From the IMG/VR virus record IMGVR_UViG_3300027608_000010: a stretch of 64,000 nucleotides of DNA; one strand, written 5' to 3'. Below the pieces are notes generated by a model. The model ran no database searches and was not told where the DNA came from. It was given only the letters and a program-made list of their open reading frames with translations. This document shows positions 6,590 through 29,357 of this stretch, in pieces. The first letter of the stretch is position 1. Each line of letters begins with the position of its first letter. This DNA is from a virus (taxonomy: Duplodnaviria; Caudoviricetes). Both the position numbers and the translations under genes were made by a program.

Positions 6590-6590
6590 A

Positions 6591-6755: not shown

Positions 6756-7375
6756 TGTCACAAGTAACAATTCCAATTCAAATCGAGGGCTTTTTGAAAG
6801 TATTCGACCCCAACAATGGGGAAGTTTTCTATGATGGTCATAATGCTATCCACTATGAAAATATTAGTGTAGCTATTGCCGATACTCTAAGTAGTCGAGG
6901 ATATGGGAGCATTTTAAAGATGGCGTTTGGTAACGGTGGGGCCAGTGTCGATGAGACCGGAGTTATCACATATTTACCAACCAATACTACAGGACAGAAT
7001 GCTTCTTTATATAGTCAAACATATGTAAAAATCATAGATGACACTAGTGTGCTTAACACAGATACTAGTAGAAATAAGATGACAGTTAGTCACCCTACTG
7101 GTAAAGTATATTCTGATATTATTATAGAATGTATTTTGGATTACGGGGAGCCAGCAGGGCAGTTAGCATTTGACAATGGTACGAGAAATCAGTCAGCATA
7201 CGTGTTTGATGAAATTGGTCTAATTGCAGACTACGGAAGTGATGCTAACGGTAATGAACTTACAAAATTACTTACCCATGTTATATTTCACCCGGTTCAA
7301 AAGAGTTTAAATAGGCAAATTCAGATTGACTATACAATCCGAATTCAAAGTTTGACCAACTTAATCACGGTTTAA
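6755..7375 (+). CDS. Baseplate/tail structural protein (putative)
   Basis: 206 aa, with a 'FDEIGL...LLTHVIFHPVQKS' C-terminal signature like phage tail-collar/baseplate proteins. Structural gene context. Confidence 0.5.
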   Translation: MSQVTIPIQIEGFLKVFDPNNGEVFYDGHNAIHYENISVAIADTLSSRGYGSILKMAFGNGGASVDETGVITYLPTNTTGQNASLYSQTYVKIIDDTSVLNTDTSRNKMTVSHPTGKVYSDIIIECILDYGEPAGQLAFDNGTRNQSAYVFDEIGLIADYGSDANGNELTKLLTHVIFHPVQKSLNRQIQIDYTIRIQSLTNLITV

Positions 7376-7377
7376 AG

Positions 7378-7384
7378 ATAAATA
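7378..7384 (+). promoter_or_regulatory. T4-type late promoter (ATAAATA)
   Basis: ATAAATA upstream of GGAG RBS and ATG 7410. Confidence 0.6.
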
Positions 7385-7409
7385 CTACAATATTGCGGAG
7401 TAAAACAGA

Positions 7410-8630: not shown

Positions 8631-8642
8631 GAAGGAATTATA

Positions 8643-9599
8643 ATGGCATACCAAAAAGGCGGCAAAATTCAAGCAGAGGATCTCAATACTCTGATTAATA
8701 ATGTTAATTCAGTACTAGGTGATTTAGGTCAAACCACACTTGGTACGGTAACACAGTATTCTAAAATGACATTTGGTCAATGGAAAGCAGTTCTTGACTC
8801 CATGTCAAATCTTGGTAATCAACAAGGAACTGTACTTTCTAGTATTGCTACTCCTTTAACCGGGCAAGCAAGTTCATATGTTGCGGCTCTTATTACTAAT
8901 AAAAATGCGATTGAATCAAACAGAAGAAATGCAGCCGCACTAGGTACATTTGTATATAATGGAACCGAAGTTACAGCTGGATGGAGTAACTTTGTAAAAT
9001 TTACACAAAGTATAGCTTTTACTAACCAAGCAGCGGCAATTAATTATTTTAATGCAGGTGGTCAAATAGGTTTACAATTCGTACATCCAGCATCCGGTAC
9101 AGGTATTGACGGTGTTTTTAATGGATTGGCTACAAACTGCGGAACAGTCGTAATGAGTGGACAGAATACAGGCACACGATCAATTGCCGGAACAACATAT
9201 AATGGTATTACTAAAATTCCCCCCTCATTACCAGCACCCGGCAATTCTCCAACTATTGGTACTAATTTAGGATATGCTGGATTAACAACTGTTGGTCAAT
9301 CATTGTTCAAACAAATTGGTGCAACTTACGTTAATCCATCATTCGGTGGCGGAACATATAGTCAAAACTTTATTGAGGTTGTTGCCTACACCACTAATAA
9401 TGGTGCAACAGTTAATTTTGAGACTACGTGGGATGAAATTCCCAATGGATTGTTAACTGGAGCAGGATCTTATACCGGACCTGACGCAGTTAATAGGTCT
9501 AGAACAACGACATATATTGTTCAACGCCCGCCATCAACAACTTATATTACTAAGTCTTGGGGAACGTTAGTGTTTACTGGTACTGTTACTGGATCATAA
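8643..9599 (+). CDS. Virion structural protein (putative)
   Basis: 318 aa, Gly/Thr/Asn-rich, AAGGA RBS, tail gene context. Confidence 0.5.
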   Translation: MAYQKGGKIQAEDLNTLINNVNSVLGDLGQTTLGTVTQYSKMTFGQWKAVLDSMSNLGNQQGTVLSSIATPLTGQASSYVAALITNKNAIESNRRNAAALGTFVYNGTEVTAGWSNFVKFTQSIAFTNQAAAINYFNAGGQIGLQFVHPASGTGIDGVFNGLATNCGTVVMSGQNTGTRSIAGTTYNGITKIPPSLPAPGNSPTIGTNLGYAGLTTVGQSLFKQIGATYVNPSFGGGTYSQNFIEVVAYTTNNGATVNFETTWDEIPNGLLTGAGSYTGPDAVNRSRTTTYIVQRPPSTTYITKSWGTLVFTGTVTGS

Positions 9600-12803: not shown

Positions 12804-14216
12804 ATGTCAGATTTTAATAATCATATCAAGATAGTAAAAGAGAAACTAGATACAGTTAGTCCTAGTTTTTGTGTGGCTAAATGGAAACAAGTTACAATGC
12901 ACTTACAGAACGGACATACACATAGTTGTCATCATCCGTCAACACACTTAGTACCGTTAGATGAAATTGCTTCAAACCCCACAGCACTACACAATACTAA
13001 TTATAAAAAATTACAAAGAAAATTGATGATAGAGGGTGAAAGACCCAGTGAATGTGATTATTGTTGGAAAGTAGAAGATCAAACCACTGATAGTTATAGT
13101 GACAGGGTTTATAAAAGTTCAGATCAATGGGCATTACCTTATGTAGATGATATTGTTAGCAAGCCTTGGGATGATAATGTAGATCCTAGTTATGTTGAAG
13201 TTAGTTTTGGTAATACATGTAATTTTAAATGTAGTTACTGTGCCCCTCATATTAGTAGTCAATGGATGGAAGAAATTGAAAGATATGGTCCATATCCTAC
13301 TAGCGGTAAATTCAATAATTTAGAATGGATCAAATTACAACAGATGATGCCTATTCCAAATAGAGATGAAAATCCCTATGTTGAAGCATTTTGGAAATGG
13401 TGGCCTACTATGTATAAGAGTTTGCAACATTTTAGAATCACCGGTGGCGAACCCTTATTAAACAAAAACACTTTCAAAGTTTTAGACTATGTTATTGACA
13501 ATCCAAATGCAAATTTAGAATTATCAATTAATACAAATCTAAATCCTCCGGATGATATATTTGATAGATTTATTGAAAAACTTAATATCATTATCAGTGA
13601 AAAGAAATTAAAAGAATTGAAGCTATTTACTAGTGCTGAAGCACATGGTAAGCAAGCTGAATATATTCGTTTTGGTATGAATTATGATACTTGGTTAACT
13701 AATTTACATAGATTATACAAAGAAGTCCCGGGTATACAAATTACTATTATGAGTACATACAATATATTGAGTATCCCAAGTTATGGTAAGTTTCTAAATG
13801 ATATATTAGAAATTAAACGAACTTACGGTGAAGTAGTTAACAAGCGTAAGAATCCCAATCCAATGATATTAGATATACCTTACTTACGATATCCAGAACA
13901 TCAATCAATATTTTTGATGGAAGCGTCAATGGTTGATATGATTTTTGACCAAGTAACTTTCATGTATAGAAATTTGCAAAATAAAGATTGGATGGGAACA
14001 TCTAATGATGGATTCTATGAGCATGAAGCGGAAAAATTAAAACGTATATATGAGATGGGTCTACACTCAGTCACTAATAAAAATGAATATGTAGATAACA
14101 ATCGTAAAGACTTTATTAAATTTGTTGATGAGCATGATTTGCGCCGCGGAACAAATTTCTTAGAAACTTTCCCTGAAATGAAAAACTTTTATAATAATTG
14201 TAAAAACCTATTATGA
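12804..14216 (+). CDS. Radical SAM enzyme with extra N-terminal Cys/His cluster
   Basis: CxxxCxxC (TCNFKCSYC), 'ITGGEPLL', and N-terminal C..K...SCHH...CDYCW. Confidence 0.85.
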   Translation: MSDFNNHIKIVKEKLDTVSPSFCVAKWKQVTMHLQNGHTHSCHHPSTHLVPLDEIASNPTALHNTNYKKLQRKLMIEGERPSECDYCWKVEDQTTDSYSDRVYKSSDQWALPYVDDIVSKPWDDNVDPSYVEVSFGNTCNFKCSYCAPHISSQWMEEIERYGPYPTSGKFNNLEWIKLQQMMPIPNRDENPYVEAFWKWWPTMYKSLQHFRITGGEPLLNKNTFKVLDYVIDNPNANLELSINTNLNPPDDIFDRFIEKLNIIISEKKLKELKLFTSAEAHGKQAEYIRFGMNYDTWLTNLHRLYKEVPGIQITIMSTYNILSIPSYGKFLNDILEIKRTYGEVVNKRKNPNPMILDIPYLRYPEHQSIFLMEASMVDMIFDQVTFMYRNLQNKDWMGTSNDGFYEHEAEKLKRIYEMGLHSVTNKNEYVDNNRKDFIKFVDEHDLRRGTNFLETFPEMKNFYNNCKNLL

Positions 14217-14644
14217 AATTTATAGCGCATCGCGGGAATTTATTAGGTCCTGATATTGAACATGAAAATACTACTAATTATATACAACATGCAATTAACA
14301 AAGGATATGATGTAGAAGTAGATGTATGGTATATAGATGGTAAACTTCTATTAGGGCATAATGCCCCCATGCATGATACTAATTTATCTTTTTTGCAACG
14401 CCCTGCAATATGGGCACATGCTAAAAATTTACCAGCGTTAGAGTACTTACTAAATAACAATGTTCATTGTTTTTGGCATGAAAATGATGAACGGACGTTG
14501 ACTAGTCAACACTATATTTGGACATACCCTGATAAAGAAATAGTAGAAAATAGTGTTTTAGTCGTGTTAACCAAACATTTAAATTTAATAGATAATAATA
14601 TTTACGCAGTATGTGGGGATTACGTTGAAATTTGGAAATCCTAA
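14213..14644 (+). CDS. Short GDPD/PLC-like phosphodiesterase-fold protein
   Basis: 'FIAHRGN...EN...GYDVEVDVW...LGH' is the GDPD N-terminal motif. Confidence 0.65.
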   Translation: MKFIAHRGNLLGPDIEHENTTNYIQHAINKGYDVEVDVWYIDGKLLLGHNAPMHDTNLSFLQRPAIWAHAKNLPALEYLLNNNVHCFWHENDERTLTSQHYIWTYPDKEIVENSVLVVLTKHLNLIDNNIYAVCGDYVEIWKS

Positions 14645-15380
14645 GATTGCACTATGTTTTAGTGGTCAACCAAGAACCTGGCGAAAATGCTTAGAGTCTT
14701 GGAAATTGCACAATGTATTTACCGATAATGTAGATGTATTTTGTCATATTTGGGATTTTAATACAGTGCCAAACTGCGTTGCTGTTGGTAAAGATATAAA
14801 AAATCAGATATTACCTCAGGACGAAATTAATGAGTTACTTGCAATACTTAAGCCAAAAAAATATTTGATAGAACCAGTGAGAACTTTTACACCTATCAAA
14901 GAATCTCAACCTATTACTTTTTCTAATTTCTTAAGCCAATTTTATGGCATTATGGCAAGTGCTAGATTAAAACGAGAATATGAAATTGAAAATATGATGC
15001 AATATGATATTGTTATCCGAATGAGGTATGATGCTTTTTTTACTGATTCAATTTTCCCTAATCAACAAGTTCATCTACCGCAAGATAACACAATGTATTG
15101 CCATCATCTGGCATGGAATCATCTTTTAAATCGAGGTAGAATTGGTGATATATTTTGGTATGCTGACTCACAAACCTATGATATTATTGGTGATTATTAT
15201 TTAAATTTAAATTCAGTAGAACTAAAATTTGTTAAAGATTTCAATGAACATGAAATATTTTTTCATTATATTAAAAAAAATAATATTCAATTGAATATTA
15301 ATAATTGGGATATTAAATTGTTTCGTGAATCGTCAGAACTAGCTTTTTCTAAGGACAAAAATGGATTTGAGACCTGGTAA
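14613..15380 (+). CDS. Glycan-modifying / GT-like protein (CxSGQxR family)
   Basis: 'KIALCFSGQPR...FCHIW...YDIVIRMRYD...DIFWYADS'. Start uncertain (GTG 14613 or TTG 14625). Confidence 0.45.
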   Translation: MGITLKFGNPKIALCFSGQPRTWRKCLESWKLHNVFTDNVDVFCHIWDFNTVPNCVAVGKDIKNQILPQDEINELLAILKPKKYLIEPVRTFTPIKESQPITFSNFLSQFYGIMASARLKREYEIENMMQYDIVIRMRYDAFFTDSIFPNQQVHLPQDNTMYCHHLAWNHLLNRGRIGDIFWYADSQTYDIIGDYYLNLNSVELKFVKDFNEHEIFFHYIKKNNIQLNINNWDIKLFRESSELAFSKDKNGFETW

Positions 15381-16098
15381 AATTGCAATCTGTATTAGCG
15401 GGATGCTTAGGACAGGTATCAAAGCATATCCCTGTTTTAAACATTTTTTCAAAGATTTAAATGCAGATGTGTTCTTCCATACATGGGGTTTAGATAACGA
15501 GACATTAGATACTGTCAATAACTTATACGAACCAATAGGCTATATAAATCAACAACCATTCGAAACCATTTCAATGGGATCATTTGGTAATATGTTTTAC
15601 AGTATTATGATGGCTAATGAATTGAAAAAGAAATACGAAATAAAAAATAATTTTCGATATGATTTAGTTATAAAAACTAGGTTTGACTTAATTTTTCCTG
15701 ACACCAATATATTTGCTAATAACAAAATTAGCCCTAGAACCATTTATAGTTCAGGGGGAGATAATGGAATCAATCATACTGATTATGAACATCACGGGAT
15801 TGCTGATTTGATTTTTTGGGGTGATAGTGAATCTATGGATATTGCCACTAACACTTTTATGTATTATAAGCACACAGCATTGCCAAAGAATCAACTGTTG
15901 ATTTCAGGCATTCAATTTGATCCTAAAGCTATATTTTTAAGTCCAGGCAATCTGATTTATAATACATGTATCAACCAAAATATACACTTAGTTAAATTTG
16001 CATCATGGTTAGGGGAAGTACCTTGGCGCGATGACGTAGACCATTTAGATCCCTTTAGGGATTATGCTTTAATAAGAGAAAGATACCGGCAAATATGA
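15361..16098 (+). CDS. Glycan-modifying / GT-like protein, paralog of 14613
   Basis: 'KIAICISGMLR...FFHTW...YDLVIKTRFD...DLIFWGDS'. Confidence 0.45.
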   Translation: MDLRPGKIAICISGMLRTGIKAYPCFKHFFKDLNADVFFHTWGLDNETLDTVNNLYEPIGYINQQPFETISMGSFGNMFYSIMMANELKKKYEIKNNFRYDLVIKTRFDLIFPDTNIFANNKISPRTIYSSGGDNGINHTDYEHHGIADLIFWGDSESMDIATNTFMYYKHTALPKNQLLISGIQFDPKAIFLSPGNLIYNTCINQNIHLVKFASWLGEVPWRDDVDHLDPFRDYALIRERYRQI

Positions 16099-16895: not shown

Positions 16896-17668
16896 CACAC
16901 ATTGCAACATGCGGTGATAGTTTTGGTGTAGGTACTGGATTACCTCAGGATAGATGTTTTGAAGATAGTTTTGGGGGAATTATTGCTAGTCATTTCAATC
17001 TACCTCAGAAAGTATATGCTCGGGCAGGTTGCTGTAATTTTGTCATTTATCTTCAAATTAAAAAGATAATAGAACAAATCGAAAAAGATGAAACGTATAA
17101 ACCTTTCGTATTGGTTACTACTACTTACCACGAAAGATTAATCTTTCCGTTAGATAACGGCACAATATATAAAAATCCAAACTTATCAGATGTTGAATAT
17201 AAATCATATAACCCCTATCATGATACAACACATGCTAAGGGCAGAGAATTGGCTTTTGAATCAAAAAAGAATACAAGATTAGTAGCTGAAACTATTTCAA
17301 ACATAAAACATTTTCAAGATGGAAAAGCCGATGGAATAGCAAGATTATTTGCAAAAGTAGATAAATCAAAACTTGAAGCAATCAAATCATACTATACGGA
17401 TATATTTGACACCGGTATTAAAAGTGAATATGACCAAGCATTAATTATTACAATGAGTTTTTTATTGAAAAAATTTAACATCCCCCATGTTATTATGGGT
17501 TATCCGTCATTAGAACTTACATATCTTGAAAATTTTATGCCAAATGATTGGGGATATTATACTAGATTATATCCAGACACTATGGGCAGTTCACATTGCA
17601 ATGAAGAAGGAAACAGGCTCGTAGGTGAAAATGTTATTAACTTTATTAAAGAACATCACTTGATATGA
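16889..17668 (+). CDS. SGNH/GDSL hydrolase-like protein
   Basis: 'TCGDSFGVG', 'GCCN', C-terminal 'HCNEEGN'. Confidence 0.55.
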   Translation: MVTHIATCGDSFGVGTGLPQDRCFEDSFGGIIASHFNLPQKVYARAGCCNFVIYLQIKKIIEQIEKDETYKPFVLVTTTYHERLIFPLDNGTIYKNPNLSDVEYKSYNPYHDTTHAKGRELAFESKKNTRLVAETISNIKHFQDGKADGIARLFAKVDKSKLEAIKSYYTDIFDTGIKSEYDQALIITMSFLLKKFNIPHVIMGYPSLELTYLENFMPNDWGYYTRLYPDTMGSSHCNEEGNRLVGENVINFIKEHHLI

Positions 17669-18384
17669 ATATATTGTTTGGATTATGTGGCGCGGGTAAA
17701 CGTTTTCGTGATGTAGGGTACACCATACCTAAATACATCATTGATGTTAATGGATCTCCCATGATTGAACATGCAGTAAAGACTTTAAAAATTTTGGGCG
17801 ATGTATTTTTTATTGTATTGAAAGAACACATGGATCAATACCCGCAAATTAAAGATATATTGTCACCTATGGGTACTATCATAGTTAGCGAATTTACTAC
17901 TCAAGGTGCCGCGCAAACATTGTTACTAGCCAAAGATTATATTGATTTAACTAAGCCCTTGATATCAGCTAACGGAGATCAATATTTAGATTGGGACTCT
18001 AGTTGCTTTAATTCAATGCTATGCGATTATCCTAATACTTCATATATTTTAACATACAAGGAAAATGATACTAAGTGCAGTTATATTAAAAAAAATGAAA
18101 AAGGTGATATTATTGAAGTTAGAGAGAAACAAGTTATAAGCAATGACGCAACTGTAGGAGTGTATCATTGGGCCAGTGCATCTGATTTTTTTAAGGACGC
18201 AGAAACAATGATTGCAGCAGATTATAGAGAGAACGGGGAGTATTATGTTGCGCCAGTATACAATTATTCAATAAAGCGTGGCTTGCAAGTTAAAAATTAC
18301 GAATTGTCTGATAAAGAATTTTGGCCGATAGGTACACCAAATGATTTGGAAAACTTTTTAAAAGTGATACAGCCCAATGATTAA
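17665..18384 (+). CDS. Sugar-phosphate nucleotidyltransferase (NTP_transferase family)
   Basis: 'CGAGKRF...PKYII.VNGSPMI', 'TQGAA.T', 'ANGDQ', 'EYYVAPVYN', 'IGTPNDL'. Confidence 0.75.
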   Translation: MNILFGLCGAGKRFRDVGYTIPKYIIDVNGSPMIEHAVKTLKILGDVFFIVLKEHMDQYPQIKDILSPMGTIIVSEFTTQGAAQTLLLAKDYIDLTKPLISANGDQYLDWDSSCFNSMLCDYPNTSYILTYKENDTKCSYIKKNEKGDIIEVREKQVISNDATVGVYHWASASDFFKDAETMIAADYRENGEYYVAPVYNYSIKRGLQVKNYELSDKEFWPIGTPNDLENFLKVIQPND

Positions 18385-19116: not shown

Positions 19117-19443
19117 ATGAAAATAGCACACATAGAACAATTCACAAAGGGTTGGTTTGTTGGTAACTTTGATCCTAGCTTGTTGAAAGCTGATTTTGAA
19201 GTAGGACTACATCAACACAAAGCCGGAGAATTCCACCAAGATCATTTTCATAAATTAGGTACAGAGATTAATGTTATGATAGAAGGTCACTTACTATTAA
19301 ACGGAAATGAGTTCGGCCCGGGTGAAATTTTTGTATTAGAGCCATACGAAATTAGTCAAGTAGAGTATCTAACAGATGTTAAATTAATCGTAGTTAGAGA
19401 TATTAGCGATCCTAATGACAAATATGAAGTAGAGATAAAATGA
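19117..19443 (+). CDS. Cupin-domain protein (RmlC-like)
   Basis: 108 aa, 'H..HFHKLGTEIN...EG' metal-binding cupin motif. Confidence 0.75.
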   Translation: MKIAHIEQFTKGWFVGNFDPSLLKADFEVGLHQHKAGEFHQDHFHKLGTEINVMIEGHLLLNGNEFGPGEIFVLEPYEISQVEYLTDVKLIVVRDISDPNDKYEVEIK

Positions 19444-20558
19444 ACATTTATATCAATGAGATACCCACAGACCATATCAAAGTAACATATCAGGTTACCT
19501 CTACTAAAAATCTATCTATTGCGGCAGAGGCAATTGCTATAGGACAGAGTATCGGCAACCCATCTGTACGAAATGAGTTTGAATCACCTGAATTAGTTAG
19601 TAATCATTCTGCTAAAATATTAGGAGATAAAAATGAATTGTCTAAAATAACTGATGGTGAAATAATTATTGGTTATCCGTTAGTAAATATTAATTGGGAT
19701 GAAGATGGTGTATCACAACTACTTTGTATGATTCAAGGTGGACAGCTTGACATAGACCATATAGTTAAGTGTAGAGTAACTGACATTGATATAACTAATT
19801 TGCCTATGCTTAAGCCAAAGTTTGGTCTTTCAGGTATAAGAGAACTAACTAAAACATATGATCGACCTTTATTAGGATGTATATTAAAACCTAAGACAGG
19901 ACTACGCCCTAAAGAGCTATCATTATTAGTTAAGGAAATGATTGCTGGCGGGGCTAACATTATTAAAGAAGATGAAATTTTAGGATCACCCTCATACTGC
20001 AATTTAGAATCACGCTTACCCTACATTAGAGATATTATACAAGATAAGAATGTAGTTTATCTTACTTGCATTAACAGCAATCCAGACAAACTTATAGAAA
20101 AGTCTAGTACTGTTAGGATGCTAGGAGTTAATGGTATACATATTAATATCTGGAGTGGTTTAGGTAGTTATGCCGCTGTTCGAAATAAAAATTATCCACT
20201 AGTCATGCATTACCAAAAGAGTGGTGATAAGATTTTAACCAATATACATAATCCATATGGTATCGATTGGATAGTTCTATGCAAGTTAGCAATCATTAGT
20301 GGTATCGATACTATACATGCCGGAATGTGGGGCGGATACTTAAGTGATGATCCTGTATACCTTAAAAATATTATGGACACATTAACTAGTCACAATGTAG
20401 TCCCTGCATTGAGTTGTGGAATGAATGCAACATTAATACCACAAGTTACCGCTAAGTTTGGTGTTGATTACTTAGCGAATGTAGGCGGGGCGTGTCATAC
20501 ACATCCTGATGGAATTAAGGCTGCTGTACGGGAATTACGAAATGCCATCGACAGATAA
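19440..20558 (+). CDS. RuBisCO-like protein (form IV RLP)
   Basis: 'RPLLGCILKPKTGL', 'GGANIIKEDE', 'HAG', 'PALSCG', 'VGGACHTHPDG'. Loop-6 Lys is replaced (GGYL) and the Glu60 position is Gln (GQSIG). Confidence 0.9.
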   Translation: MNIYINEIPTDHIKVTYQVTSTKNLSIAAEAIAIGQSIGNPSVRNEFESPELVSNHSAKILGDKNELSKITDGEIIIGYPLVNINWDEDGVSQLLCMIQGGQLDIDHIVKCRVTDIDITNLPMLKPKFGLSGIRELTKTYDRPLLGCILKPKTGLRPKELSLLVKEMIAGGANIIKEDEILGSPSYCNLESRLPYIRDIIQDKNVVYLTCINSNPDKLIEKSSTVRMLGVNGIHINIWSGLGSYAAVRNKNYPLVMHYQKSGDKILTNIHNPYGIDWIVLCKLAIISGIDTIHAGMWGGYLSDDPVYLKNIMDTLTSHNVVPALSCGMNATLIPQVTAKFGVDYLANVGGACHTHPDGIKAAVRELRNAIDR

Positions 20559-21495
20559 CATCACAATACTTAAAGGCGGTTCTTTAAATTCGACATGCCT
20601 ACATGAAAACTCTATGGGTAAGTTTGTTAGAAAAAAAATAGCTACAGATAAGAATAGAGAATATGGATATGTTCGATGGTATAGTCAGCTAAAGAAATTA
20701 CAACGTTATAATAGTATGTTTCCTGGATTTGTTCCAAAGGTCTTGGATGCAGGAGTTAATGATAATGAAGCATACTTTGATATTGAATATATTGATGGTA
20801 TAGATATTAAGACTTTGTTTAAGAATAATCTAATAGATGATGTAGAAAAGTTGAATCAATCATTATGGGAAGCATTTGACTTGATACATCATAGGTCATA
20901 TAGTCCACTGCGTAGTTCTCTTATGCTTTACTTTATGGAAGAAGTAGAACAGAAACTACATGATGCACTAGAGTTCCCAGAGTTCAGAGACTTTTACATG
21001 ATGGATGTATATGAGTACAGGGGTGAAACATTTAGGGGCATGATCGGACAGCACGATAAGTTCAAAAAACTATTCAATAGAGATATTACTAGTGAAGGCT
21101 ATGTCCACGGCAATCCTACACTTGAAAACATACTATACAATACTGATACAAACAAAATAACCTTTATTGATTTATATGAAGAAGGGATAGTTGATAGTAG
21201 ATATTCAGATTATAGTCAGGTGTTACAATGCAGTAATAGTCACTATGGATTGATAAATGATTCAATAGTAACAATTAATGATAATCAGATTATGTCCGAT
21301 TATATTATACCAGATAAATTAGCAGAGTTCAATTCGTTGTTTATAGAAAATATTGAAGACAACACATCGTTGGTAATGCTATTTGAGGCTACCCAATATT
21401 TTAGAATGTTACCGTTTAAGTGTCATAGTGGTAACATATCTCACGCTAAGTTTTTTTATGGGTATGGATGCTATCTAGTAAATAAATTACTATGA
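20542..21495 (+). CDS. APH/choline-kinase-like phosphotransferase-fold protein
   Basis: 'FVRKK', 'VHGNPTLENIL', 'FID'. ATG 20542 is in frame with ORF-track start 20509. Confidence 0.6.
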   Translation: MPSTDNITILKGGSLNSTCLHENSMGKFVRKKIATDKNREYGYVRWYSQLKKLQRYNSMFPGFVPKVLDAGVNDNEAYFDIEYIDGIDIKTLFKNNLIDDVEKLNQSLWEAFDLIHHRSYSPLRSSLMLYFMEEVEQKLHDALEFPEFRDFYMMDVYEYRGETFRGMIGQHDKFKKLFNRDITSEGYVHGNPTLENILYNTDTNKITFIDLYEEGIVDSRYSDYSQVLQCSNSHYGLINDSIVTINDNQIMSDYIIPDKLAEFNSLFIENIEDNTSLVMLFEATQYFRMLPFKCHSGNISHAKFFYGYGCYLVNKLL

Positions 21496-22583
21496 TATGT
21501 AACATAAAAACATCACTCCCGATTGAATTTGAAATCCGTAAAGCTGTCAACGTATTATCGTTATCCGAAATTACTAGTAAAAGAAAAATTGTTATAATTG
21601 ACAGAAATGTTTATGAGTTATATTCCGATCAACTATTTGATGACGTAGATTCGTTGTTATTTATAGACTCGTCCGAAGAAAACAAAGATTGGACAACTGC
21701 GGAAATGGTACTAACCTTCTTAGAAGAAAATAAAATATTACGTAGGTCAGAACCAGTAATAGCAATAGGTGGCGGAGTCTTATTAGACTTAGTAGGATTT
21801 TGCTGTAGCATATATCGTAGGGGTATTCCTTACATTCGTATACCCACGACATTACTAGCAATCGTTGACGCTAGTGTGGGAGCAAAAACAAGCGTAAATC
21901 ATTTTAATAGAAGAAATCGTTTGGGTAGTTTTTATCCACCACAACTAACATTGATTGACACTACGTTTATCAAAACACAATCTGATAGAGAAATATCTAA
22001 TGGCTTTGCAGAGATATTAAAATTAGCAATCGTGTTAGATAGTAAGTTGTTTGAATTAATAGAAACAGATTCAGATAAGTTACTACAGTGCAAATTTCAA
22101 GATACCGCACATTCAACTGAAATAATTGAACGGGCAATTGCAGGTATGACCAAAGAACTTAATGATAATTTGTGGGAGCAAGAATTAGAAAGACCAGTAG
22201 ATTTTGGTCATTCATTCAGTCCCCTAATTGAAATGAAGAACGTACCTAATCTACTTCACGGAGAAGCAGTTATACTAGATTGTTTATTAAGTTGCTGTAT
22301 ATCAACTGTTAGAAACCTTCTCTCAGCGGATGAGTTAACTAGAATATTTAATTTGACTAGAAAAATGAATCTACCTGTAACTCATACTGATTTTTTAAAT
22401 AGCACATTATTGTTAGAAGGCTTGTCTGATGTAATGAAGCACAGAAACGGAAATCAATACTTACCTATACCAACATCTATTGGACAGTGTAAAATCATCA
22501 ATGACCTAACACCTGCTGAATTAGAATCAGCAATACAACTAATGAGATTATATGAAAAAGACCATATTGATTACTGGCACTAG
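21492..22583 (+). CDS. Sedoheptulose-7-phosphate cyclase, EEVS-type (DHQS superfamily)
   Basis: 'GGGVLLD...YRRGIPY.RIPTT..AIVDASVG.K..VN...NRLG..YPP', 'NLWE..LERPVDFGHSFSP', 'LLHGEAV'. Confidence 0.8.
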   Translation: MICNIKTSLPIEFEIRKAVNVLSLSEITSKRKIVIIDRNVYELYSDQLFDDVDSLLFIDSSEENKDWTTAEMVLTFLEENKILRRSEPVIAIGGGVLLDLVGFCCSIYRRGIPYIRIPTTLLAIVDASVGAKTSVNHFNRRNRLGSFYPPQLTLIDTTFIKTQSDREISNGFAEILKLAIVLDSKLFELIETDSDKLLQCKFQDTAHSTEIIERAIAGMTKELNDNLWEQELERPVDFGHSFSPLIEMKNVPNLLHGEAVILDCLLSCCISTVRNLLSADELTRIFNLTRKMNLPVTHTDFLNSTLLLEGLSDVMKHRNGNQYLPIPTSIGQCKIINDLTPAELESAIQLMRLYEKDHIDYWH

Positions 22584-23217
22584 TAGTGGTCTAGGTTTAG
22601 CTCTGGCAAAACACTATAGCAAGAATCACAATGTTATTGGATTAAGTAGAACCAATGTAGAAATGCCTAATTATACTCATCATATTTGTGATATTAGTAA
22701 CTTTGATAACGTATCTAAAACATTTTATTCCATCGGTGATAGTAAAATTGATTTACTGATTAATAATGCAGGGGTATTTGATATGGACAAGTTTACTCAA
22801 ACATCTATCCATACTATTGACCGTGTTATTAATACTAACCTGACAGGTGCCATGTATGTAACCAGATCAGCATTAGAGTCAATGCCAGATCATAGTAAAA
22901 TAGTCTTTATCAATAGTGTAGCAGGATTAGAAGAATTAGAGAATCAAAGTATATATTGTGCTAGTAAGTATGGTCTAACTGCATTTGCTGGAATACTTGG
23001 TAAAGAACTAAGAGACAGACATATCAAAGTCTCTAGCATACACCCCGGTGGGATTAATACCCCATTATGGGATAATACCCCATACCCGTTAGGAGATGCT
23101 ACTAATGCAATGGATCCAAATTCTATAATAGAAATTATCGACCTAATTGTAAACAGTAAATATGATATTGATTACAAAACTGTCAAAATGTTTCCGTCTA
23201 TTGAATGGCATAACTGA
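22552..23217 (+). CDS. Short-chain dehydrogenase/reductase (SDR)
   Basis: 'TGTSSGLG', 'NNAG', catalytic 'YCASK'. Confidence 0.9.
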   Translation: MKKTILITGTSSGLGLALAKHYSKNHNVIGLSRTNVEMPNYTHHICDISNFDNVSKTFYSIGDSKIDLLINNAGVFDMDKFTQTSIHTIDRVINTNLTGAMYVTRSALESMPDHSKIVFINSVAGLEELENQSIYCASKYGLTAFAGILGKELRDRHIKVSSIHPGGINTPLWDNTPYPLGDATNAMDPNSIIEIIDLIVNSKYDIDYKTVKMFPSIEWHN

Positions 23218-23227: not shown

Positions 23228-23344
23228 ATGAGAAACTTATTTCAAACACTATATTATAATACAATTGGAAAATTAGTTAGAGAATACAAGTATAGAAAAC
23301 GATTAAAAGAGTTACGTAAACGAGATCCATTTATCTACAAATGA
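23228..23344 (+). CDS. Small basic 38-aa protein (not in ORF track)
   Basis: MRNLFQTLYYNTIGKLVREYKYRKRLKELRKRDPFIYK*; its stop overlaps the ATG of the carbamoyltransferase (ATGA). Confidence 0.6.
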   Translation: MRNLFQTLYYNTIGKLVREYKYRKRLKELRKRDPFIYK

Positions 23345-24864
23345 ATATACTAGGAATCAGTGCCGGCTTTCATGACGCTGCCATCTCAGTTGTTAACACC
23401 CAAGGTGATATACTGTTTGCCGGCCACAGCGAACGCTACAGCAAGATAAAAAACGATGCACACATCAGCGCAGGCTTGATTGAAGAAATCTTCGGATTTG
23501 ATATTGATACCATTGCCTACTATGAACGACCCTGGGCCAAACAACTGCGTAGGCTTTACAGTGGCGAAGGTGTGCAATGGGGAGCCCTGACTGTAGAGCA
23601 ATGCTTACAAAGAGAACTCGGCGATCATCTAAAAATTTCCAGAGAACAAAACATCACGGATCCTCTGCATCCTGCTACAAATCTAAGAACCAGATCCTTC
23701 AATCACCATCTTAGTCATGCAGCCGGTGGATTTCAAACAAGTCCGTATGATCGTGCTACAGTTGTTGTGATTGATGCCATAGGTGAGTGGGATACGATAT
23801 CGATCTGGGGAGCCGAGTATGACAAGAGAGGCCGAGCACAGTATAAGAGATTGTGGACACAGCGCTATCCTCACAGCCTAGGTTTGTTTTATAGTGCAAT
23901 TACTAAGCGTGTGGGCCTACACCCATTAGACGAAGAATACATTACTATGGGCATGGCTGCTTATGGTGATGACCATTACCATGATCTTATGGAGGCAGTA
24001 TTGATCAGCGATGCAGACTCCATAGAATTCAAACAAAACTTGCACATAGGCGTTAGTGATAAATTCATGGACGGACTGGATCACATGGATATCGCTGCCA
24101 GTGCTCAACGGTTGTTACAACGACTAATAGGTAATGTCATGCGTAGAGCCAGGGATTTTAAGTGGTCAACCAATCTTGTGTATCAGGGTGGTGTTGCACT
24201 CAACTGTCTGGCCAATAGACAACTAGGAAGATTTTTTGAAAATATTTGGATTATGCCTTGCCCCGGTGATGCTGGCAGTAGTCTTGGCGCTGCTGCTCTT
24301 GCTCATGGTGGCAGGATTAATTGGACTACTGCTTTCTTGGGTCATGCTATACCCGGTAACTATCCCGTTAATGATGCTCTTAATCATCTCATTACTAATA
24401 GTATTGTTGGTGTAGCAAGTGGGCGTGCAGAATTTGGCCCAAGAGCATTGGGAAATAGAAGCCTACTTGCAGACCCAAGAGGAAAAGAAATAAAGGACCA
24501 AGTAAATGCAATCAAACGCAGACAAAAGTTTCGACCCTTTGCCCCTGTTATACTGGCTGAACTGGCTGATGACTATTTTGATATCAAGCCCGGCTGGCAT
24601 ACTCACAGTTATATGCAGTCAGTCGCTAGTTGCCGCGATCCTAATCTTTACCCTGCTATATGTCATGTTGATGGCACCAGTAGAGTACAAACGGTGGCAA
24701 AGGATGGATCAGGTATAAGACAGTTGTTAGAAGCCTGGTATGCACAAACAGGTTGCCCAATGTTATTGAACACTAGTCTTAACATACGCGGTGAACCCAT
24801 GGTAAATGATAGAACTGATGCTGATAGATTTCAGAATTTATACAATGTACAGGTCTTTTCGTGA
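23341..24864 (+). CDS. O-carbamoyltransferase (NodU/CmcH family)
   Basis: 'ILGIS..FHDAA', 'HHLSHAA', 'VIDAIGE', 'GGVALN', 'EFGPRALGNRSLLADPR', 'RPFAP', 'LLNTSLN'. Confidence 0.92.
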   Translation: MNILGISAGFHDAAISVVNTQGDILFAGHSERYSKIKNDAHISAGLIEEIFGFDIDTIAYYERPWAKQLRRLYSGEGVQWGALTVEQCLQRELGDHLKISREQNITDPLHPATNLRTRSFNHHLSHAAGGFQTSPYDRATVVVIDAIGEWDTISIWGAEYDKRGRAQYKRLWTQRYPHSLGLFYSAITKRVGLHPLDEEYITMGMAAYGDDHYHDLMEAVLISDADSIEFKQNLHIGVSDKFMDGLDHMDIAASAQRLLQRLIGNVMRRARDFKWSTNLVYQGGVALNCLANRQLGRFFENIWIMPCPGDAGSSLGAAALAHGGRINWTTAFLGHAIPGNYPVNDALNHLITNSIVGVASGRAEFGPRALGNRSLLADPRGKEIKDQVNAIKRRQKFRPFAPVILAELADDYFDIKPGWHTHSYMQSVASCRDPNLYPAICHVDGTSRVQTVAKDGSGIRQLLEAWYAQTGCPMLLNTSLNIRGEPMVNDRTDADRFQNLYNVQVFS

Positions 24865-27389
24865 TAGATATAGCGCATAGAAAAAAACTTTGGGATCAAG
24901 GATATTGGGAAATACCTGAAGGGTTAGATATAACTAACTTTGACTTCTCATGGAGACCAGAATCACATGATAGACCTTATATACATCAGTTTGGTACCCA
25001 GCATCAAAAGACAGGTGGACCAAGATTTGTAATTCCTGAAAATGAGGGTATCAAATATCAAAATTATCAACATGCAATAAGATTGCCTACTCCTGATATC
25101 AGATGTTGGCGACCATTGGTATCAAACATAGATTTTGATTATAGCTGGCACCCAGATGATACAGAACCTCCGTTCATTTATGTATTTGGTAACCAATGGC
25201 ATGACTCAGTTGAAATGCCGACTATACAATATAAAGTTTCAGGTGCAACTGAAAAGAAGTATGTTAATACAATAAAAGCAAAATTATTACCTGATAAAAC
25301 TAATTGGATCATACCTGATGATATAGAGGATAACTTTGACTATAGCTGGGTTCCTAGCCCCAAAGAACCATCTTTCATTTGGGAATTTGGAACACAATGG
25401 CAATCAACCGGTGGACCGAGTTATGTTGCACACGGCGCAACTTATACAAAATACTCTAAAGAATTGAATGCTACTAAGAAAAGTAATAATGAAGATAGAT
25501 GCTGGAGACCATTATTTCCCAATATAGACTTTGACTATAGTTGGCACCCCGATAAAAATGATCCGCCATACATATATGTGTTTGGCAATCAATGGTATGA
25601 TAGTTTAACAATGCCAACATTGTTATATAGGGTGAAAGGTGCAACTGAAAAGAAATATATGACTGACATAAAGGTCACGCTAACTCCTAATAAATCTTTG
25701 TGGTCTATACCAGATGACATAGAAGATGATTTTGATTATAGTTGGCTACCACACCCTGATGAACCGGCATATATATGGCAGTTCGGCACACAATGGCAGA
25801 AGAACGGTGGACCAAAGTATACTGCAATCAATGCAACTGTAGTTAAACATTCTGATTTGTTTAAAGCAACCAAAAAGAATATTAAAGAAAATCGTTTATA
25901 CAGACCATTAGTGTCAAATATTGAATTTGACTATAGCTGGCACCCGGATGAAGATGAACCACCATACATATATGTATTCGGCAATCAATGGTATGATAGT
26001 TTAAAAATGCCGACATTGGTATACCGAGTTAAAAGAGCTACTGAGAAGAAATATATGACTGACATAAAGGTCACGCTAACTCCTAATAAATCTTTGTGGT
26101 CTATACCAGATGACATAGAAGATGATTTTGATTATAGTTGGCTACCAGACCCCATAGAGCCACCATTTATTTGGCAGTTCGGCACACAATGGCAGAGGAA
26201 CGGTGGACCAAAGTATAATGCACTAGGAGCAAACATAATTAAACATTCTGATTTGTTCAAGGCAACTAAAAAATCTAATATTCGTAATTGGCGTTTTATT
26301 GAATCTATTAATAAAGAAACATTTGACTTTAGTTGGCACCCAGATGAAACAGAAGAAAACTTTAACCACATTGTTGGTACTAAGTTTCATACACCTGAGA
26401 TAATGCCTGCAATTATGTATCGTGGACACAATGATGCAAGAACTAACAAATATACTACAGAGATATGTGCTGATTTGACGATAGATAAGATTGTATATGA
26501 GGATAGCATATTTGATGCATGTATGGAACATAAATTCTCTACTGCTTATGCACATTTTGTAAAGAATACTAATAGCAACTACACACATGATTTGATTAAG
26601 GCTGATAATATCAGCGTACATTTATTTCCAAGCGAGGCGATTATTCCTAAGTCAGCAGTTACATTCTTCTATGATAAGATTACTGACTATGACCATGTTA
26701 TTGAACATGAATTTGAAGAAACAGTTGAGCCACTAGATGTTATATTCTTTAGTAACGGTGAAGCATGTGCTGATGACAATTATAATCATTTATTGTCACT
26801 TAATTTACCTAATAGAATTGTGCGTATTGACAGAGTGAAAGGTCGTGTTGCAAGTCAACATGCGGCAGCAAATGCTAGTAATACCCCCTGGTACTTCTTG
26901 GTAAATGCTAAGTTAAAAGTAAGAGATGACTTTGACTTCAATTGGCAACCAAACATATACAAATCACGTAGACACTATATATTCAGGGCAACTAATCCTG
27001 TAAATGGATTAGTGTATGGTCACCAAGCTATTGTCGCAAACAACAAGAAACTTACTTTGAACACTGTAGTTCGTGGGTTAGACTTTACAATGGACAGTGC
27101 AACAGAAGTAGTTGACATTAACTCCGGAGTAGCAATGTACAATACTAGTGCGTGGGATACTTGGAGAACAGCATTTAGAGAAATGATTAAACTATGTTGC
27201 AACACAGACCAAGATTCAATTGACAGAGGCGCAGCCTGGTTGAATAAGGGTTACGGAGACTTTGGTGAATACAGCAAGTTGGGTGCAAAAGATGCAGTTG
27301 ATTATTATAACAGTGTTGATGGTAATATGGAAAAACTTATGCTAAGTTATGATTGGGAATGGTTGTATCAGTATTACCAAAATAGTTGA
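24861..27389 (+). CDS. Repeat protein (132-aa units) fused to C-terminal GT-like domain
   Basis: Repeated 'FDYSWHPD..EPPYIYVFGNQW...FDYSW.P...IWQFGTQW'. The C-terminus resembles ORF 11853. Confidence 0.65.
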   Translation: MIDIAHRKKLWDQGYWEIPEGLDITNFDFSWRPESHDRPYIHQFGTQHQKTGGPRFVIPENEGIKYQNYQHAIRLPTPDIRCWRPLVSNIDFDYSWHPDDTEPPFIYVFGNQWHDSVEMPTIQYKVSGATEKKYVNTIKAKLLPDKTNWIIPDDIEDNFDYSWVPSPKEPSFIWEFGTQWQSTGGPSYVAHGATYTKYSKELNATKKSNNEDRCWRPLFPNIDFDYSWHPDKNDPPYIYVFGNQWYDSLTMPTLLYRVKGATEKKYMTDIKVTLTPNKSLWSIPDDIEDDFDYSWLPHPDEPAYIWQFGTQWQKNGGPKYTAINATVVKHSDLFKATKKNIKENRLYRPLVSNIEFDYSWHPDEDEPPYIYVFGNQWYDSLKMPTLVYRVKRATEKKYMTDIKVTLTPNKSLWSIPDDIEDDFDYSWLPDPIEPPFIWQFGTQWQRNGGPKYNALGANIIKHSDLFKATKKSNIRNWRFIESINKETFDFSWHPDETEENFNHIVGTKFHTPEIMPAIMYRGHNDARTNKYTTEICADLTIDKIVYEDSIFDACMEHKFSTAYAHFVKNTNSNYTHDLIKADNISVHLFPSEAIIPKSAVTFFYDKITDYDHVIEHEFEETVEPLDVIFFSNGEACADDNYNHLLSLNLPNRIVRIDRVKGRVASQHAAANASNTPWYFLVNAKLKVRDDFDFNWQPNIYKSRRHYIFRATNPVNGLVYGHQAIVANNKKLTLNTVVRGLDFTMDSATEVVDINSGVAMYNTSAWDTWRTAFREMIKLCCNTDQDSIDRGAAWLNKGYGDFGEYSKLGAKDAVDYYNSVDGNMEKLMLSYDWEWLYQYYQNS
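25104..26291 (+). repeat. Three in-frame 396-bp (132-aa) tandem repeat units
   Basis: Equivalent codons at 25104, 25500 and 25896. 25650-25751 is identical to 26046-26147. Confidence 0.85.
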
Positions 27390-28832: not shown

Positions 28833-28934
28833 ATGTTTGAAAATTGGCATTGGGTTTATATGTGGGGCATCTTAGTTATAGTCAACTATATGTTCTGGAT
28901 AGTAAAAAATCTTTTTGACAGTGTGAAAGAGTAA
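28833..28934 (+). CDS. Small 33-aa membrane peptide (not in ORF track)
   Basis: MFENWHWVYMWGILVIVNYMFWIVKNLFDSVKE*, with one hydrophobic helix. Confidence 0.45.
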   Translation: MFENWHWVYMWGILVIVNYMFWIVKNLFDSVKE

Positions 28935-29218
28935 GAACAGCGTAAACCTGCTGAGGAAACACTGGCGACACGGGAGTTCAATTCTCCCCACCTCCACCAA
29001 AAGCACATTCGGTATGCACATAGCATACAGAGACATTAGAAACATGATTGTGCTTTTGATGGGGGTGACATGGGATCGACCGACAGGATAGTACAAAGAT
29101 TAGGCGCTCATCAGAGTAGATGTTAAAACTAAACAAAAGTAACCGCAAACGACTCACAGTTCGCATTAGCAGCCTAAACACTGCTTAGGGTAAGACATAC
29201 CTCGTAACAGAAAATCAG
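28935..29218 (+). ncRNA. ssrA: Circularly permuted (two-piece) tmRNA: acceptor piece ~28935-28999, intervening segment 29000-29060, coding piece 29061-~29218
   Basis: T-arm GGGAG-TTCAATT-CTCCC and CACCTCC-A-CCA (to 28999) lie upstream of the 5' strand GGGGGTG (29061). They pair 7/7 with G3.U70. Tag frame 29145-29177 = ANDSQFALAA*. Outer ends are approximate. Confidence 0.92.
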
Positions 29219-29241
29219 AAAAGGCTCTTCGGAGCCTTTTT
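29219..29241 (+). terminator. Rho-independent terminator after tmRNA
   Basis: AAAAGGCTC-TTCG-GAGCCTTTTT. Confidence 0.85.
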
Positions 29242-29357
29242 CTCTAAGTGTTTACACTTAGTAAGAACAATGAATTTCACTATGTTATTTTTGATTTTTC
29301 CGTGTATAATAGTGATACATACTATGACAGTATGTCAAACTTAACCAGGAGAAAACT

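Follow-up and report, generated by a model that had tools for sequence, protein, structure and literature searches.

The gene for a RuBisCO-like protein (RLP) in this viral DNA probably encodes an active, non-carboxylating sugar-phosphate isomerase or epimerase that supplies a sugar-1-phosphate nucleotidyltransferase (NTase), the product being destined for a surface or virion glycan. From the sequence evidence, a probability of roughly 0.55 is assigned to this reading. The loss of the residues for CO2 fixation and the genetic tie, up to fusion, to a sugar-activating enzyme indicate that the RLP most likely rearranges a sugar phosphate for an unusual surface sugar. The window is the whole stretch of 64,000 nt from IMG/VR virus record IMGVR_UViG_3300027608_000010 (Caudoviricetes), to which all coordinates refer. 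The genes considered are as follows.

14213..14644, + strand, short GDPD-like protein of 143 aa that keeps HR..E..ExD..GHD; profile match to GDPD 7e0v, E 2.8e-5
14613..16098, + strand, two paralogous "fam4" proteins of about 250 aa, a recurrent family
17665..18384, + strand, NTase of the sugar-1-phosphate type, RmlA/GlmU-like; PF00483 NTP_transferase, E 5.7e-8
19117..19443, + strand, single-domain cupin of 108 aa, metal motif HxH...E; its gene is translationally coupled to that of the RLP
19440..20558, + strand, RLP of 372 aa, placed in the phage/CPR/DPANN/SAR11 "form IV-like" clade by PF00016, AF2 model, tree and invariant active site
20509..21495, + strand, kinase-like protein; PF01636 (APH family), E 0.0035, under the gathering score
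21492..22583, + strand, EEVS-type sedoheptulose-7-phosphate cyclase with DHQ_synthase and DHQS_C domains
22552..23217, + strand, short-chain dehydrogenase/reductase (SDR); adh_short, 125 bits

The RLP reading frame is intact and open, and its start ATG overlaps the stop codon of the preceding cupin gene (ATGA, positions 19440-19443). The product matched Pfam RuBisCO_large PF00016 with an E value of 1.8e-32 and 113 bits (gathering cut-off 30.1), and the best matches among PDB sequences were form III RuBisCO 2cwx (1e-25) and the RLPs 4nas and 3nwr. The AlphaFold2 model (pLDDT 91.2, pTM 0.91) was aligned by Foldseek to form III RuBisCO 2d69/2cwx with a TM score of 0.87. With the PF00016 score and the modeled N-domain and TIM-barrel fold, the predicted protein is a member of the RuBisCO large-subunit superfamily. 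A complex prediction for the RLP dimer plus the cupin gave a score of 0.00, which was counted neither for nor against their pairing. The window also contains genes for a large terminase (46452-47999), a UvsX-like recombinase, an SSB and a helicase, so that by its predicted gene content it is a large phage. Among the cultured phages of INPHARED, there were no RLP homologues at E 1e-5 and no nucleotide matches to 12-24 kb.

Active-site residues were mapped on a HMMER alignment to 2cwx and on a family alignment whose 256 members stem from phages, cells and a giant-virus-like contig. The sequence GGANIIKEDE covers RLP residues 170-179 and contains the equivalents of K201, D203 and E204 as K176, D178 and E179, while KPK, residues K150-P151-K152, is equivalent to K175/K177 and the position of the loop-6 K334 is occupied by Y300; all of these were found in 256 of 256 members. 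The original prediction had read these three sites in the same way. It had also read E60 as replaced by Q: the loss of E60 stands, but the aligned residue is G35 and the Q is its neighbor, Q36, both invariant. Two more residues needed for carboxylation are exchanged (N123 to Q102, H294 to Q259), and Y300, G35/Q36, Q102 and Q259 are invariant in 246 to 256 of the 256 members. Other substitutions are T173 to I148, R295 to K260, H298 to D263 and T65 to N40. The predicted protein thus is without the residues needed for CO2 fixation and without the catalytic set of the carboxylating RuBisCOs of forms I to III; with the metal/carbamate site kept and the carboxylation residues gone, it belongs to the form IV RLPs, broadly defined.

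A true carboxylase/oxygenase that raises the carbon fixation of the host during infection would agree with the fold of RuBisCO and with a retained carbamate/metal site, but K334, E60, N123 and H294 are all invariantly swapped. The scores with the NCBIfam form I to III models are also far below the respective cut-offs (133 of 497 bits for TIGR03326, 137 of 438 for NF003252, 66 of 489 for NF010002), and small subunit, phosphoribulokinase and AMP-pathway partner are all absent nearby. The probability of such an activity is practically negligible.

The core of K150, K152, K176, D178, E179, Y300, S325, G327 and G349 is invariant across the 256 members, and such strict conservation of a catalytic core argues for a working enzyme with a single common reaction. 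The phosphate-1 site (G327, G349/G350) is retained together with the metal site. Characterized members of the RuBisCO family keep both sites, and their substrates share a CH2-OP group beside a ketone. Replacement of H298 by the invariant D263, on the other hand, speaks against a second phosphate site of the classical kind.

Known RLP functions were compared by NCBIfam equivalog models and by a tree, in which the reference sequences were labeled from NCBIfam scores only. The RLP reached 113 of the required 409 bits with NF007095 and 83 of 514 with TIGR03332, both MtnW models, and the tree places P0256, a bona fide MtnW (652 bits), in the half opposite to that of the RLP. No mtn gene of the mtnK/A/B/X/D neighborhood was found in the window, the neighbors being NTase, cupin, cyclase, SDR and glycan genes. 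Identity as MtnW/YkrW was rejected on the scores, the separation in the tree and the neighborhood. OiaX/OiaC of the apionate pathway was likewise rejected, with 125 bits in NF042437 (cut-off 700) and an OiaX-like representative, P0205, in a distant clade; a search of 301 actinomycete genomes with the OiaX model gave only matches below the cut-off. By residue losses, model scores and separate clade, the RLP is a non-carboxylating one, probably outside all characterized RLP functions, as the original prediction had expected; neither a position in the MtnW/YkrW clade nor the residues for CO2 fixation were found.

The clade of the RLP is supported by SH-aLRT values of 99 to 100, and the RLP of this phage is at most about 30% identical to any RLP outside of it. 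It contains one sequence from a Beckwithbacteria MAG and at least 332 IMG/VR contigs, comprises more than 2000 database clusters, and has further members in SAR11, DPANN, Verrucomicrobia, an actinomycete and a giant-virus-like contig. Among outgroup RLPs, the nearest ones, P0190 and P0221, have pentose-phosphate/aldolase genes as neighbors or contexts too short to be informative. By description and grouping, rather than by direct comparison of sequences, the clade matches the "form IV-like" RLPs of phages and Beckwithbacteria in the accessible text of Jaffe, Castelle, Dupont and Banfield (Mol Biol Evol 2019; PMC6389311). About 80 virus-borne RLPs are reported there, so that carriage by a virus is not new.

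The gene neighborhood was counted in 84 RLP loci, dereplicated to 26 RLP clusters; some comparisons use 80 RLP loci. The NTase, which also matched the NCBIfam models Arch_glmU and rmlA_long, is present within four genes of the RLP in all 26 clusters. The cupin occurs in 24 of the 26 clusters and 69 of the 84 loci, directly 5' of the RLP in 63 loci. The short GDPD-like protein was found in 15 clusters (61 loci); its gene is usually directly 3' of the RLP and is shifted upstream in this phage. A fam4 protein is encoded in 41 of the 84 loci; these proteins are possibly transferases, and a profile search against PDB sequences gave nothing credible for them. A recognizable kinase or phosphatase is absent from most RLP loci.

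RLP and NTase are also joined physically. Natural RLP-NTase fusions form 27 clusters with proteins of 658 to 672 aa, and two proteins, P0297 and P0298, are RLP-NTase-cupin fusions with the cupin last. An AlphaFold2 model of the fusion P0304, made from a shallow alignment, was too poor for a statement on domain packing (pLDDT 73.5, pTM 0.56). Both genes are adjacent in Pelagibacter, Beckwithbacteria, Woese-/Nanoarchaeota, Verrucomicrobia, Turneriella and Nonomuraea, and the pairing is found in cell-surface glycan loci of SAR11, CPR, DPANN and others; the minimal cellular contexts consist of RLP and NTase alone. HAD-NTase fusions are located beside cupin and RLP in 9 of 80 RLP loci, and in Pelagibacter one lies upstream of the RLP at a distance of about 5 kb. 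By analogy, such fusions near an RLP would represent the logic of pathways leading from a bisphosphate via a 1-phosphate to an NDP-sugar. A search of the literature for an RLP tied to a nucleotidyltransferase, to the synthesis of polysaccharides or to glycan islands of SAR11 yielded nothing relevant.

RLP, GDPD-like phosphoesterase and cupin may also be read as a triad resembling methionine salvage, with the RLP as enolase and the cupin as acireductone-type dioxygenase, yielding a 2-keto acid for activation by the NTase. A precedent is the Bacillus order of MtnW (an RLP), then a phosphatase, then the cupin MtnD, as given in the accessible text of PMC3698126, and the phage cupin keeps a 2-His-1-Glu metal motif. 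Its profile matches, however, are Cupin_2/quercetinase structures and Cupin_7/Cupin_2, with no match to ARD; the RLP is far from MtnW, the window is free of mtn genes, and the NTase resembles sugar-1-phosphate enzymes instead of the CMP-ulosonate synthases of PF02348. Such a triad is therefore very unlikely.

The NTase and the cyclase, in a window with phage genes, agree with the anabolic context (nucleotide sugar or glycan) that had been predicted for this virus. The prediction had also pointed to the cyclase and to cyclitols, and a defining role of these was not borne out: only 4 of the 26 clusters (10 of 84 loci) combine the RLP with EEVS cyclase, kinase-like protein and SDR, compared to 26 for the NTase and 24 for the cupin, both of which are found fused to the RLP. 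The kinase-like gene is at the +1 position of the RLP in only 9 to 10 of the 84 loci. This gene may in fact begin at 20542, with an in-frame ATG, and its product has no relatives in the PDB.

As an alternative, along the lines of the original prediction, the RLP of this phage might perform a step in C7-cyclitol (carbasugar) synthesis, for instance as an AcbO-like 2-epimerase of phosphorylated 2-epi-5-epi-valiolone provided by the adjacent cyclase and the kinase-like protein. The best PDB match of the cyclase is indeed ValA 4p53 (284 bits, compared to 188 for DDGS and 161 for DHQS), the three genes are directly 3' of the RLP, the same trio pairs with RLPs of two subclades with 49 to 98% identity to the query, the SDR accompanying cyclase and kinase-like gene across loci, and epimerization beside a ketone on a phosphorylated substrate may fit RLP chemistry. 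Against a cyclitol step, the trio is rare, presence or absence of the cyclase makes no difference to the RLP active site in the 256-member alignment, and cellular and fused forms of the RLP exist without any cyclase. It is quite unlikely. Cyclase, kinase-like gene and SDR are lineage-specific add-ons, and the branch is dispensable for an explanation of the RLP.

A cyanophage version of the module indicates which step the RLP may perform. In 80 cyanophage-type loci, the core of NTase, cupin, short GDPD-like protein and fam4 is shared (fam4 in 53 of 80), and none contains an RLP. Instead, an RpiB/LacAB isomerase is fused to the NTase in 69, with a PfkB-like kinase in 76 and a HAD phosphatase in 74; these three were found in none of 80 RLP loci. 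A cyanophage fam4 homolog matched DUF7796 only weakly (25.7 bits, below the cut-off of 27). Since an RpiB-type front end alternates with the RLP, a sugar-phosphate isomerase fills the slot of the RLP, and this alternation points to a role of the RLP as a sugar-phosphate isomerase feeding the NTase. The RLP module is represented by 26 RLP clusters and the cyanophage type by 8 cupin clusters, all 8 from cyanophage-like contigs, so that both types may trace back to few evolutionary events and the alternation is suggestive instead of a statistical proof of equivalence. The RLP module and that with RpiB, kinase and phosphatase could also make different sugars. Replacement of GmhA plus heptose kinase by the RLP was not supported: the cyanophage-type loci contain no GmhA homolog (0 of 80) and rarely a heptose-kinase homolog (13 of 80). 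The replaced isomerase is of the RpiB type instead.

From fold, residue pattern, clade, synteny, fusions and alternation, we infer a reaction type and an order of steps. The carbamylated lysine, the Mg2+ site and the K175-equivalent lysine of the RLP would enolize a 1-phospho-2-keto sugar from central metabolism, and the RmlA/GlmU-type NTase would convert the resulting phospho-sugar to an NDP-sugar, in certain lineages once a second phosphate has been removed. This compound may then be tailored by the small metal cupin, and the final product would enter the surrounding glycosyltransferase-rich locus. In the lineage of this phage, the branch of EEVS cyclase, kinase-like protein and SDR is added beside the RLP and may contribute a C7-cyclitol branch. 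Several points count against the general reading: an anomeric phosphate is required by a sugar-1-phosphate NTase, and we know of no RLP reaction that gives one; recognizable kinases and phosphatases are absent from most RLP loci; and D263 in place of H298 is unfavorable for a second phosphate site.

The RLP could, alternatively, act after the NTase and together with the cupin, as a keto-isomerase or an epimerase, enolizing an NDP-linked keto-sugar such as an NDP-4-keto sugar from a nearby SDR, with the diphosphate in the phosphate-1 site. SDR epimerase/dehydratase genes (fam5) are indeed located within four genes of the RLP in 8 of the 26 clusters and are common in cellular loci, the fusion order RLP-NTase-cupin leaves the order of reactions unfixed, and the short RLP belongs to a subclade without the C-terminal tail of longer members, which could leave a more open site. 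The minimal cellular contexts with RLP and NTase only, and a cyanophage slot filled by isomerase, kinase and phosphatase, all acting before nucleotide activation, speak against this order; moreover, no RuBisCO-family enzyme is known to us that binds a nucleotide sugar. Action after the NTase is thus unlikely.

A bolder version of an RLP acting before the NTase is tentative and more doubtful than the general reading. The RLP might turn a ketose-1-phosphate or ketose-1,omega-bisphosphate, e.g., sedoheptulose- or fructose-bisphosphate, directly into the aldose-1-phosphate or aldose-1,omega-bisphosphate by an MtnA-like shift that keeps the C1 phosphate. This reaction, new to the superfamily and its first anabolic one, would take the place of both the isomerase and the ATP-dependent kinase in nucleotide-heptose-type pathways and supply a rare NDP-sugar for surface glycans of phages, giant viruses, SAR11, CPR and DPANN.

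To our knowledge, every characterized RLP works in salvage or catabolism, that is, in methionine salvage, the MTA-isoprenoid shunt or apionate/tetronate breakdown. If the clade serves nucleotide-sugar synthesis, the RuBisCO scaffold would be seen in a biosynthetic role for the first time, and this would provide a function for a large group of viral RLPs unexplained since 2019. Since the module is also present in surface-glycan islands of SAR11 and CPR/DPANN, the sugar may determine phage-host recognition widely among aquatic microbes. With four small, soluble enzymes and with fusions available from nature, the question can be tested directly in vitro.

Like the clade studied here, the RLPs in the accessible text of Jaffe et al. 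(PMC6389311) are divergent, located on large contigs of myovirus-like phages sampled in many environments, group with Beckwithbacteria and miss several RuBisCO catalytic residues. That text leaves the function open and reports no gene context of phage RLPs, whereas a module of NTase, cupin and GDPD-like protein, with fusions, is here tied to the clade. With MtnW/YkrW, the 2,3-diketo-5-methylthiopentyl-1-phosphate enolase, the RLP shares the fold and may share a carbamate/Mg2+-dependent enolization beside a C1 phosphate without carboxylation, but equivalog scores, position in the tree and context differ. The logic of nucleotide-heptose-type pathways (GmhA/HldE/GmhB/HddC: isomerase, PfkB kinase, HAD phosphatase, NTase) is matched by the cyanophage module, in which the orthologous NTase is fused to an RpiB-type isomerase, and on the RLP side by the HAD-NTase fusions. 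The RLP loci differ in having the RLP in place of isomerase, kinase and, mostly, phosphatase, and GmhA occurs in neither module. A precedent for the proposed chemistry is the DeepYkr RLP that serves the MTA-isoprenoid shunt in Rhodospirillum rubrum and Rhodopseudomonas palustris, a 5-methylthioribulose-1-phosphate 1,3-isomerase with an adjacent cupin methylsulfurylase (PMC5893883). In both cases, a small cupin neighbors the RLP; the DeepYkr enzyme isomerizes a ketose-1-phosphate by proton transfers, and its cupin acts on the product. The DeepYkr system belongs to salvage, includes mtnP and mtnA and lacks a nucleotidyltransferase, and the phage cupin has no specific match to the DeepYkr partner. 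As a characterized combination of RLP and cupin, it is a precedent for isomerase chemistry and for the RLP-cupin pairing in the phage module.

The open reading frame at 19440-20558 on the plus strand is intact and encodes a RuBisCO-like protein (RLP) of 372 aa; its ATG shares an ATGA with the stop codon of the 108-aa gene upstream. Pfam RuBisCO_large matched it with 113 bits (E = 1.8e-32), and by sequence the closest solved structures were a form III RuBisCO from Pyrococcus horikoshii (2cwx, 1e-25) along with two RLPs (4nas, 3nwr). An AlphaFold2 model with a 20-sequence alignment as input (pLDDT 91.2, pTM 0.91) superposed on form III RuBisCO with a TM score of 0.87. The RuBisCO-like nature of this gene, as seen in the original prediction, is confirmed. 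The identical protein is present on 23 public contigs, the longest with 296.7 kb, and the window is part of a large phage with genes for a large terminase, a UvsX-like recombinase, SSB, a helicase and thymidylate synthase. Among cultured phages, no nucleotide match to the window was found, and INPHARED contained no RLP homologue in cultured phages. Rfam assigned a tmRNA to 28901-29243 (+) (beta_tmRNA, full model, 112 bits, gathering score 84) with a tmRNA_permuted match of 88.6 bits at 28939-29177, while ARAGORN found no tRNA or tmRNA over the whole window; the betaproteobacterial flavour of the tmRNA may be a hint at the host.

Against the NCBIfam equivalogs, all scores were far below the cut-offs: 133 of 497 bits for form III, 125 of 700 for OiaX, and 113 of 409 and 83 of 514 for MtnW. 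HMMER, run exhaustively over 1.84 billion representatives, gave 37 matches at E <=1e-30, from 371 to about 123 bits; lower scores passed without a step into the background of RuBisCOs and RLPs in general, at about 120 bits. A maximum-likelihood tree with 127 sequences placed the RLP family in a single clade (SH-aLRT 99-100); the bona fide MtnW P0256 (652 bits) and the OiaX-like P0205 fell outside it, and its closest neighbours were uncharacterised sequences. Because of these scores and the separate clade, the protein was not placed in a characterised salvage clade, in agreement with the original prediction. Jaffe et al. 2019 (PMC6389311) describe about 80 divergent "form IV-like" RLPs on phage contigs, which cluster with Beckwithbacteria; one of these phages was curated (about 200 kb), and some were Myoviridae. 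By this description, the query clade corresponds to these sequences; it is present on at least 332 IMG/VR contigs and has a Beckwithbacteria member from a MAG. The query is a member of an already known viral and cellular RLP clade.

Active-site residues were called by aligning the query to 2cwx with HMMER and across 256 members of the family (RuBisCO numbering, query residues in parentheses). All 256 members keep K175/K177 (K150/K152), K201/D203/E204 (K176/D178/E179), S379 (S325), G381 (G327) and G403 (G349), and 252 retain H327 (H293). Near-invariant substitutions are K334 to Y300, N123 to Q102, T173 to I148, H294 to Q259, R295 to K260, H298 to D263 and T65 to N40. The residues predicted earlier held on these alignments except for the exchange of E60 by Q: G35 stands opposite E60, and Q36 is the next residue. 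Given the substitutions at K334, N123, H294, E60 and other sites, carboxylation by this clade would not be expected, as had been proposed. The rest of the site is nearly totally invariant across viruses and cells, which argues for a functional enzyme with one reaction common to the clade.

The neighbourhood was evaluated in 84 loci (the window, 80 from IMG/VR and three metagenome places), with ORFs called and clustered by BLASTP.

Recurrent neighbours of the RLP gene (window coordinates)
17665-18384: NTP_transferase (NTase), 240 aa; 79 of 84 loci, usually two genes upstream of the RLP
19117-19443: 108-aa protein; 69 of 84 loci, in 63 directly upstream of the RLP
14213-14644: 143-aa protein; 61 of 84 loci, usually directly downstream of the RLP
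14613-16098: 250-aa family, two copies in the window; 41 of 84 loci

The NTase is closer to the sugar-1-phosphate enzymes GlmU/RmlA than to IspD. A single cupin domain with the metal motif HxH(x4)E makes up the 108-aa protein, and the 143-aa protein retains the glycerophosphodiester phosphodiesterase (GDPD) catalytic motifs HR..E..ExD..GHD, with a profile match to the GDPD 7e0v. When the RLPs were dereplicated at 70% identity into 26 clusters and partners counted up to four genes away, the NTase was present in 26, the cupin in 24 and the GDPD-like protein in 15 clusters; an EEVS cyclase, a kinase-like protein and an SDR were present in 4 clusters each. The module is flanked by a twitch-domain radical SAM protein at 12804-14216 (+) (NF033640, 338 bits) and a NodU/CmcH-type carbamoyltransferase at 23341-24864 (+) (phrog_1601, 303 bits); the 842-aa ORF at 24861-27389 had no family match.

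The family is also cellular, with members in SAR11 (one complete Pelagibacter genome and several single-cell genomes), Beckwithbacteria, Woese-, Nano- and Micrarchaeota, Verrucomicrobia, Turneriella, Elusimicrobia, Bacteroidota and Nonomuraea rosea. In these genomes the RLP is almost always adjoined by the same NTase family and often by the GDPD-like protein or cupin. The Pelagibacter pair sits amid LPS genes (GmhA-like SIS, PfkB kinase, heptosyltransferase GT9, KdsB-like enzyme), and the Nonomuraea pair is accompanied by a GT2 in a mobile region. In the complete genome of Candidatus Pelagibacter sp. (CP159823.1, 114-135 kb), these LPS-core-type genes also include a cytidylyltransferase-like gene and a HAD-NTase fusion; a 2-hydroxyacid dehydrogenase adjoins the pair, and a dehydrogenase of the same fold is beside the Nonomuraea copy. 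A direct replacement of GmhA by the RLP was not supported.

Natural RLP-NTase fusions formed 27 clusters at 90% identity (658-672 aa), and two proteins of 813-817 aa were RLP-NTase-cupin fusions. One of these, the 813-aa protein at 6389-8830 of the 10-kb contig L139, is followed directly by a 250-aa-family protein; since this contig also carries a gene for the poxvirus-type late transcription factor VLTF3, it is probably from a giant virus. Fusion loci had the order [RLP-NTase]-cupin-GDPD-like-NTase in capsule and phosphonate glycan clusters. Together with the conserved cellular pairing, the fusions are strong genomic evidence that RLP, NTase and cupin work in a single pathway. AlphaFold2 gave a low-confidence fold for a natural RLP-NTase fusion. 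Outside the query clade, the representative search also returned (P0229, P0183, P0201) a TIR-RLP of 583 aa and two fusions of 726 and 742 aa of an IF-2B-family domain (ribose-1,5-bisphosphate/MTR-1-P isomerase type) with RuBisCO.

In cultured Synechococcus myoviruses such as Bellamy and SynMITS9220M01, the cupin, the NTase, the GDPD-like protein and the 250-aa protein all have homologues, but no RLP is present. In 80 IMG/VR loci anchored on the cyanophage cupin (8 clusters at 70% identity), the usual order was HAD phosphatase, PfkB-like kinase, NTase-RpiB/LacAB fusion, cupin, GDPD-like and 250-aa protein. The isomerase part of the fusion matched PF02502, the RpiB/LacAB family of sugar-phosphate isomerases, with 111 bits. 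An example is 8838-9995 of L148, the IMG/VR copy of Bellamy, with 68 more in this set; public annotation is just "phosphatase" or "hypothetical."

Gene content of RLP-anchored versus cyanophage-type loci (80 each)
RLP: 80 versus 0
RpiB domain: 0 versus 69
HAD phosphatase: 0 versus 74
PfkB-like kinase: 0 versus 76
NTase: 76 versus 78
Cupin: 69 versus 80
GDPD-like: 65 versus 65

These counts indicate a common core fed by either the RLP or an isomerase-kinase-phosphatase trio, which is a pattern and not a statistical proof of equivalence because each version may trace to few evolutionary events. In both versions, the "isomerase," RLP or RpiB, can be fused to the NTase.

The cyclase at 21492-22583 (+) is an EEVS-type sedoheptulose-7-phosphate cyclase, with 284 bits for ValA (4p53, best PDB match) versus 188 for DDGS and 161 for DHQS, so that the proposed cyclitol context is real. 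Cultured phages contained no counterpart above 33% identity, only ordinary AroB-like sequences, and the phage-borne C7-cyclitol branch therefore appears undescribed. With such a cyclase downstream, the RLP might act as a cyclitol-phosphate epimerase in the lineage of the window. This is improbable: the cyclase, kinase-like and SDR genes are restricted to few lineages, accompanying RLPs of two subclades (49-98% identity to the query), and look like a branch added to a generic module, not like the key to RLP function. The original interpretation, an uncharacterised RLP reaction in an anabolic gene context, is partly supported. Two loci, L080 and L007, share the upstream order 250-aa family, DUF6071, f12, DUF6071, NTase, cupin and the downstream order kinase-like, cyclase, SDR, f7, f40, and their RLPs are from different subclades (412 aa with 49% and 379 aa with 61% identity to the query), which suggests that RLP alleles were exchanged inside a conserved cassette.

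In all characterised members of the superfamily, the bound substrate has a ketone flanked by a CH2-OP group; a carbamylated lysine with Mg2+ removes the adjacent proton, and K175 serves as acid/base. Taken with the fusions and the alternation with RpiB, the retained site points, with a probability of about 55%, to an enolising sugar-phosphate isomerase or epimerase that supplies the phospho-sugar for the NTase. The RLP would enolise a sugar phosphate to an isomerised or epimerised phospho-sugar, the NTase would activate it, and the cupin would then modify the product for use by the glycosyltransferase-rich locus around the module. A narrower version, conversion of a ketose-1,omega-bisphosphate into an aldose-1,omega-bisphosphate in place of isomerase plus kinase, would explain the NTase-HAD phosphatase fusions found in 9 of the 80 RLP loci and about 5 kb upstream of the Pelagibacter RLP, but is doubtful, the Asp that invariably replaces H298 speaking against it. 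The link of the clade to nucleotide-sugar biosynthesis is well supported, and the searchable literature contained no publication of it. For the enolising isomerase or epimerase, the DeepYkr RLP offers a comparison: it isomerises a ketose-1-phosphate by the same enolising chemistry, and the neighbouring gene encodes a cupin for the next step (PMC5893883), just as the query RLP is located beside its cupin.
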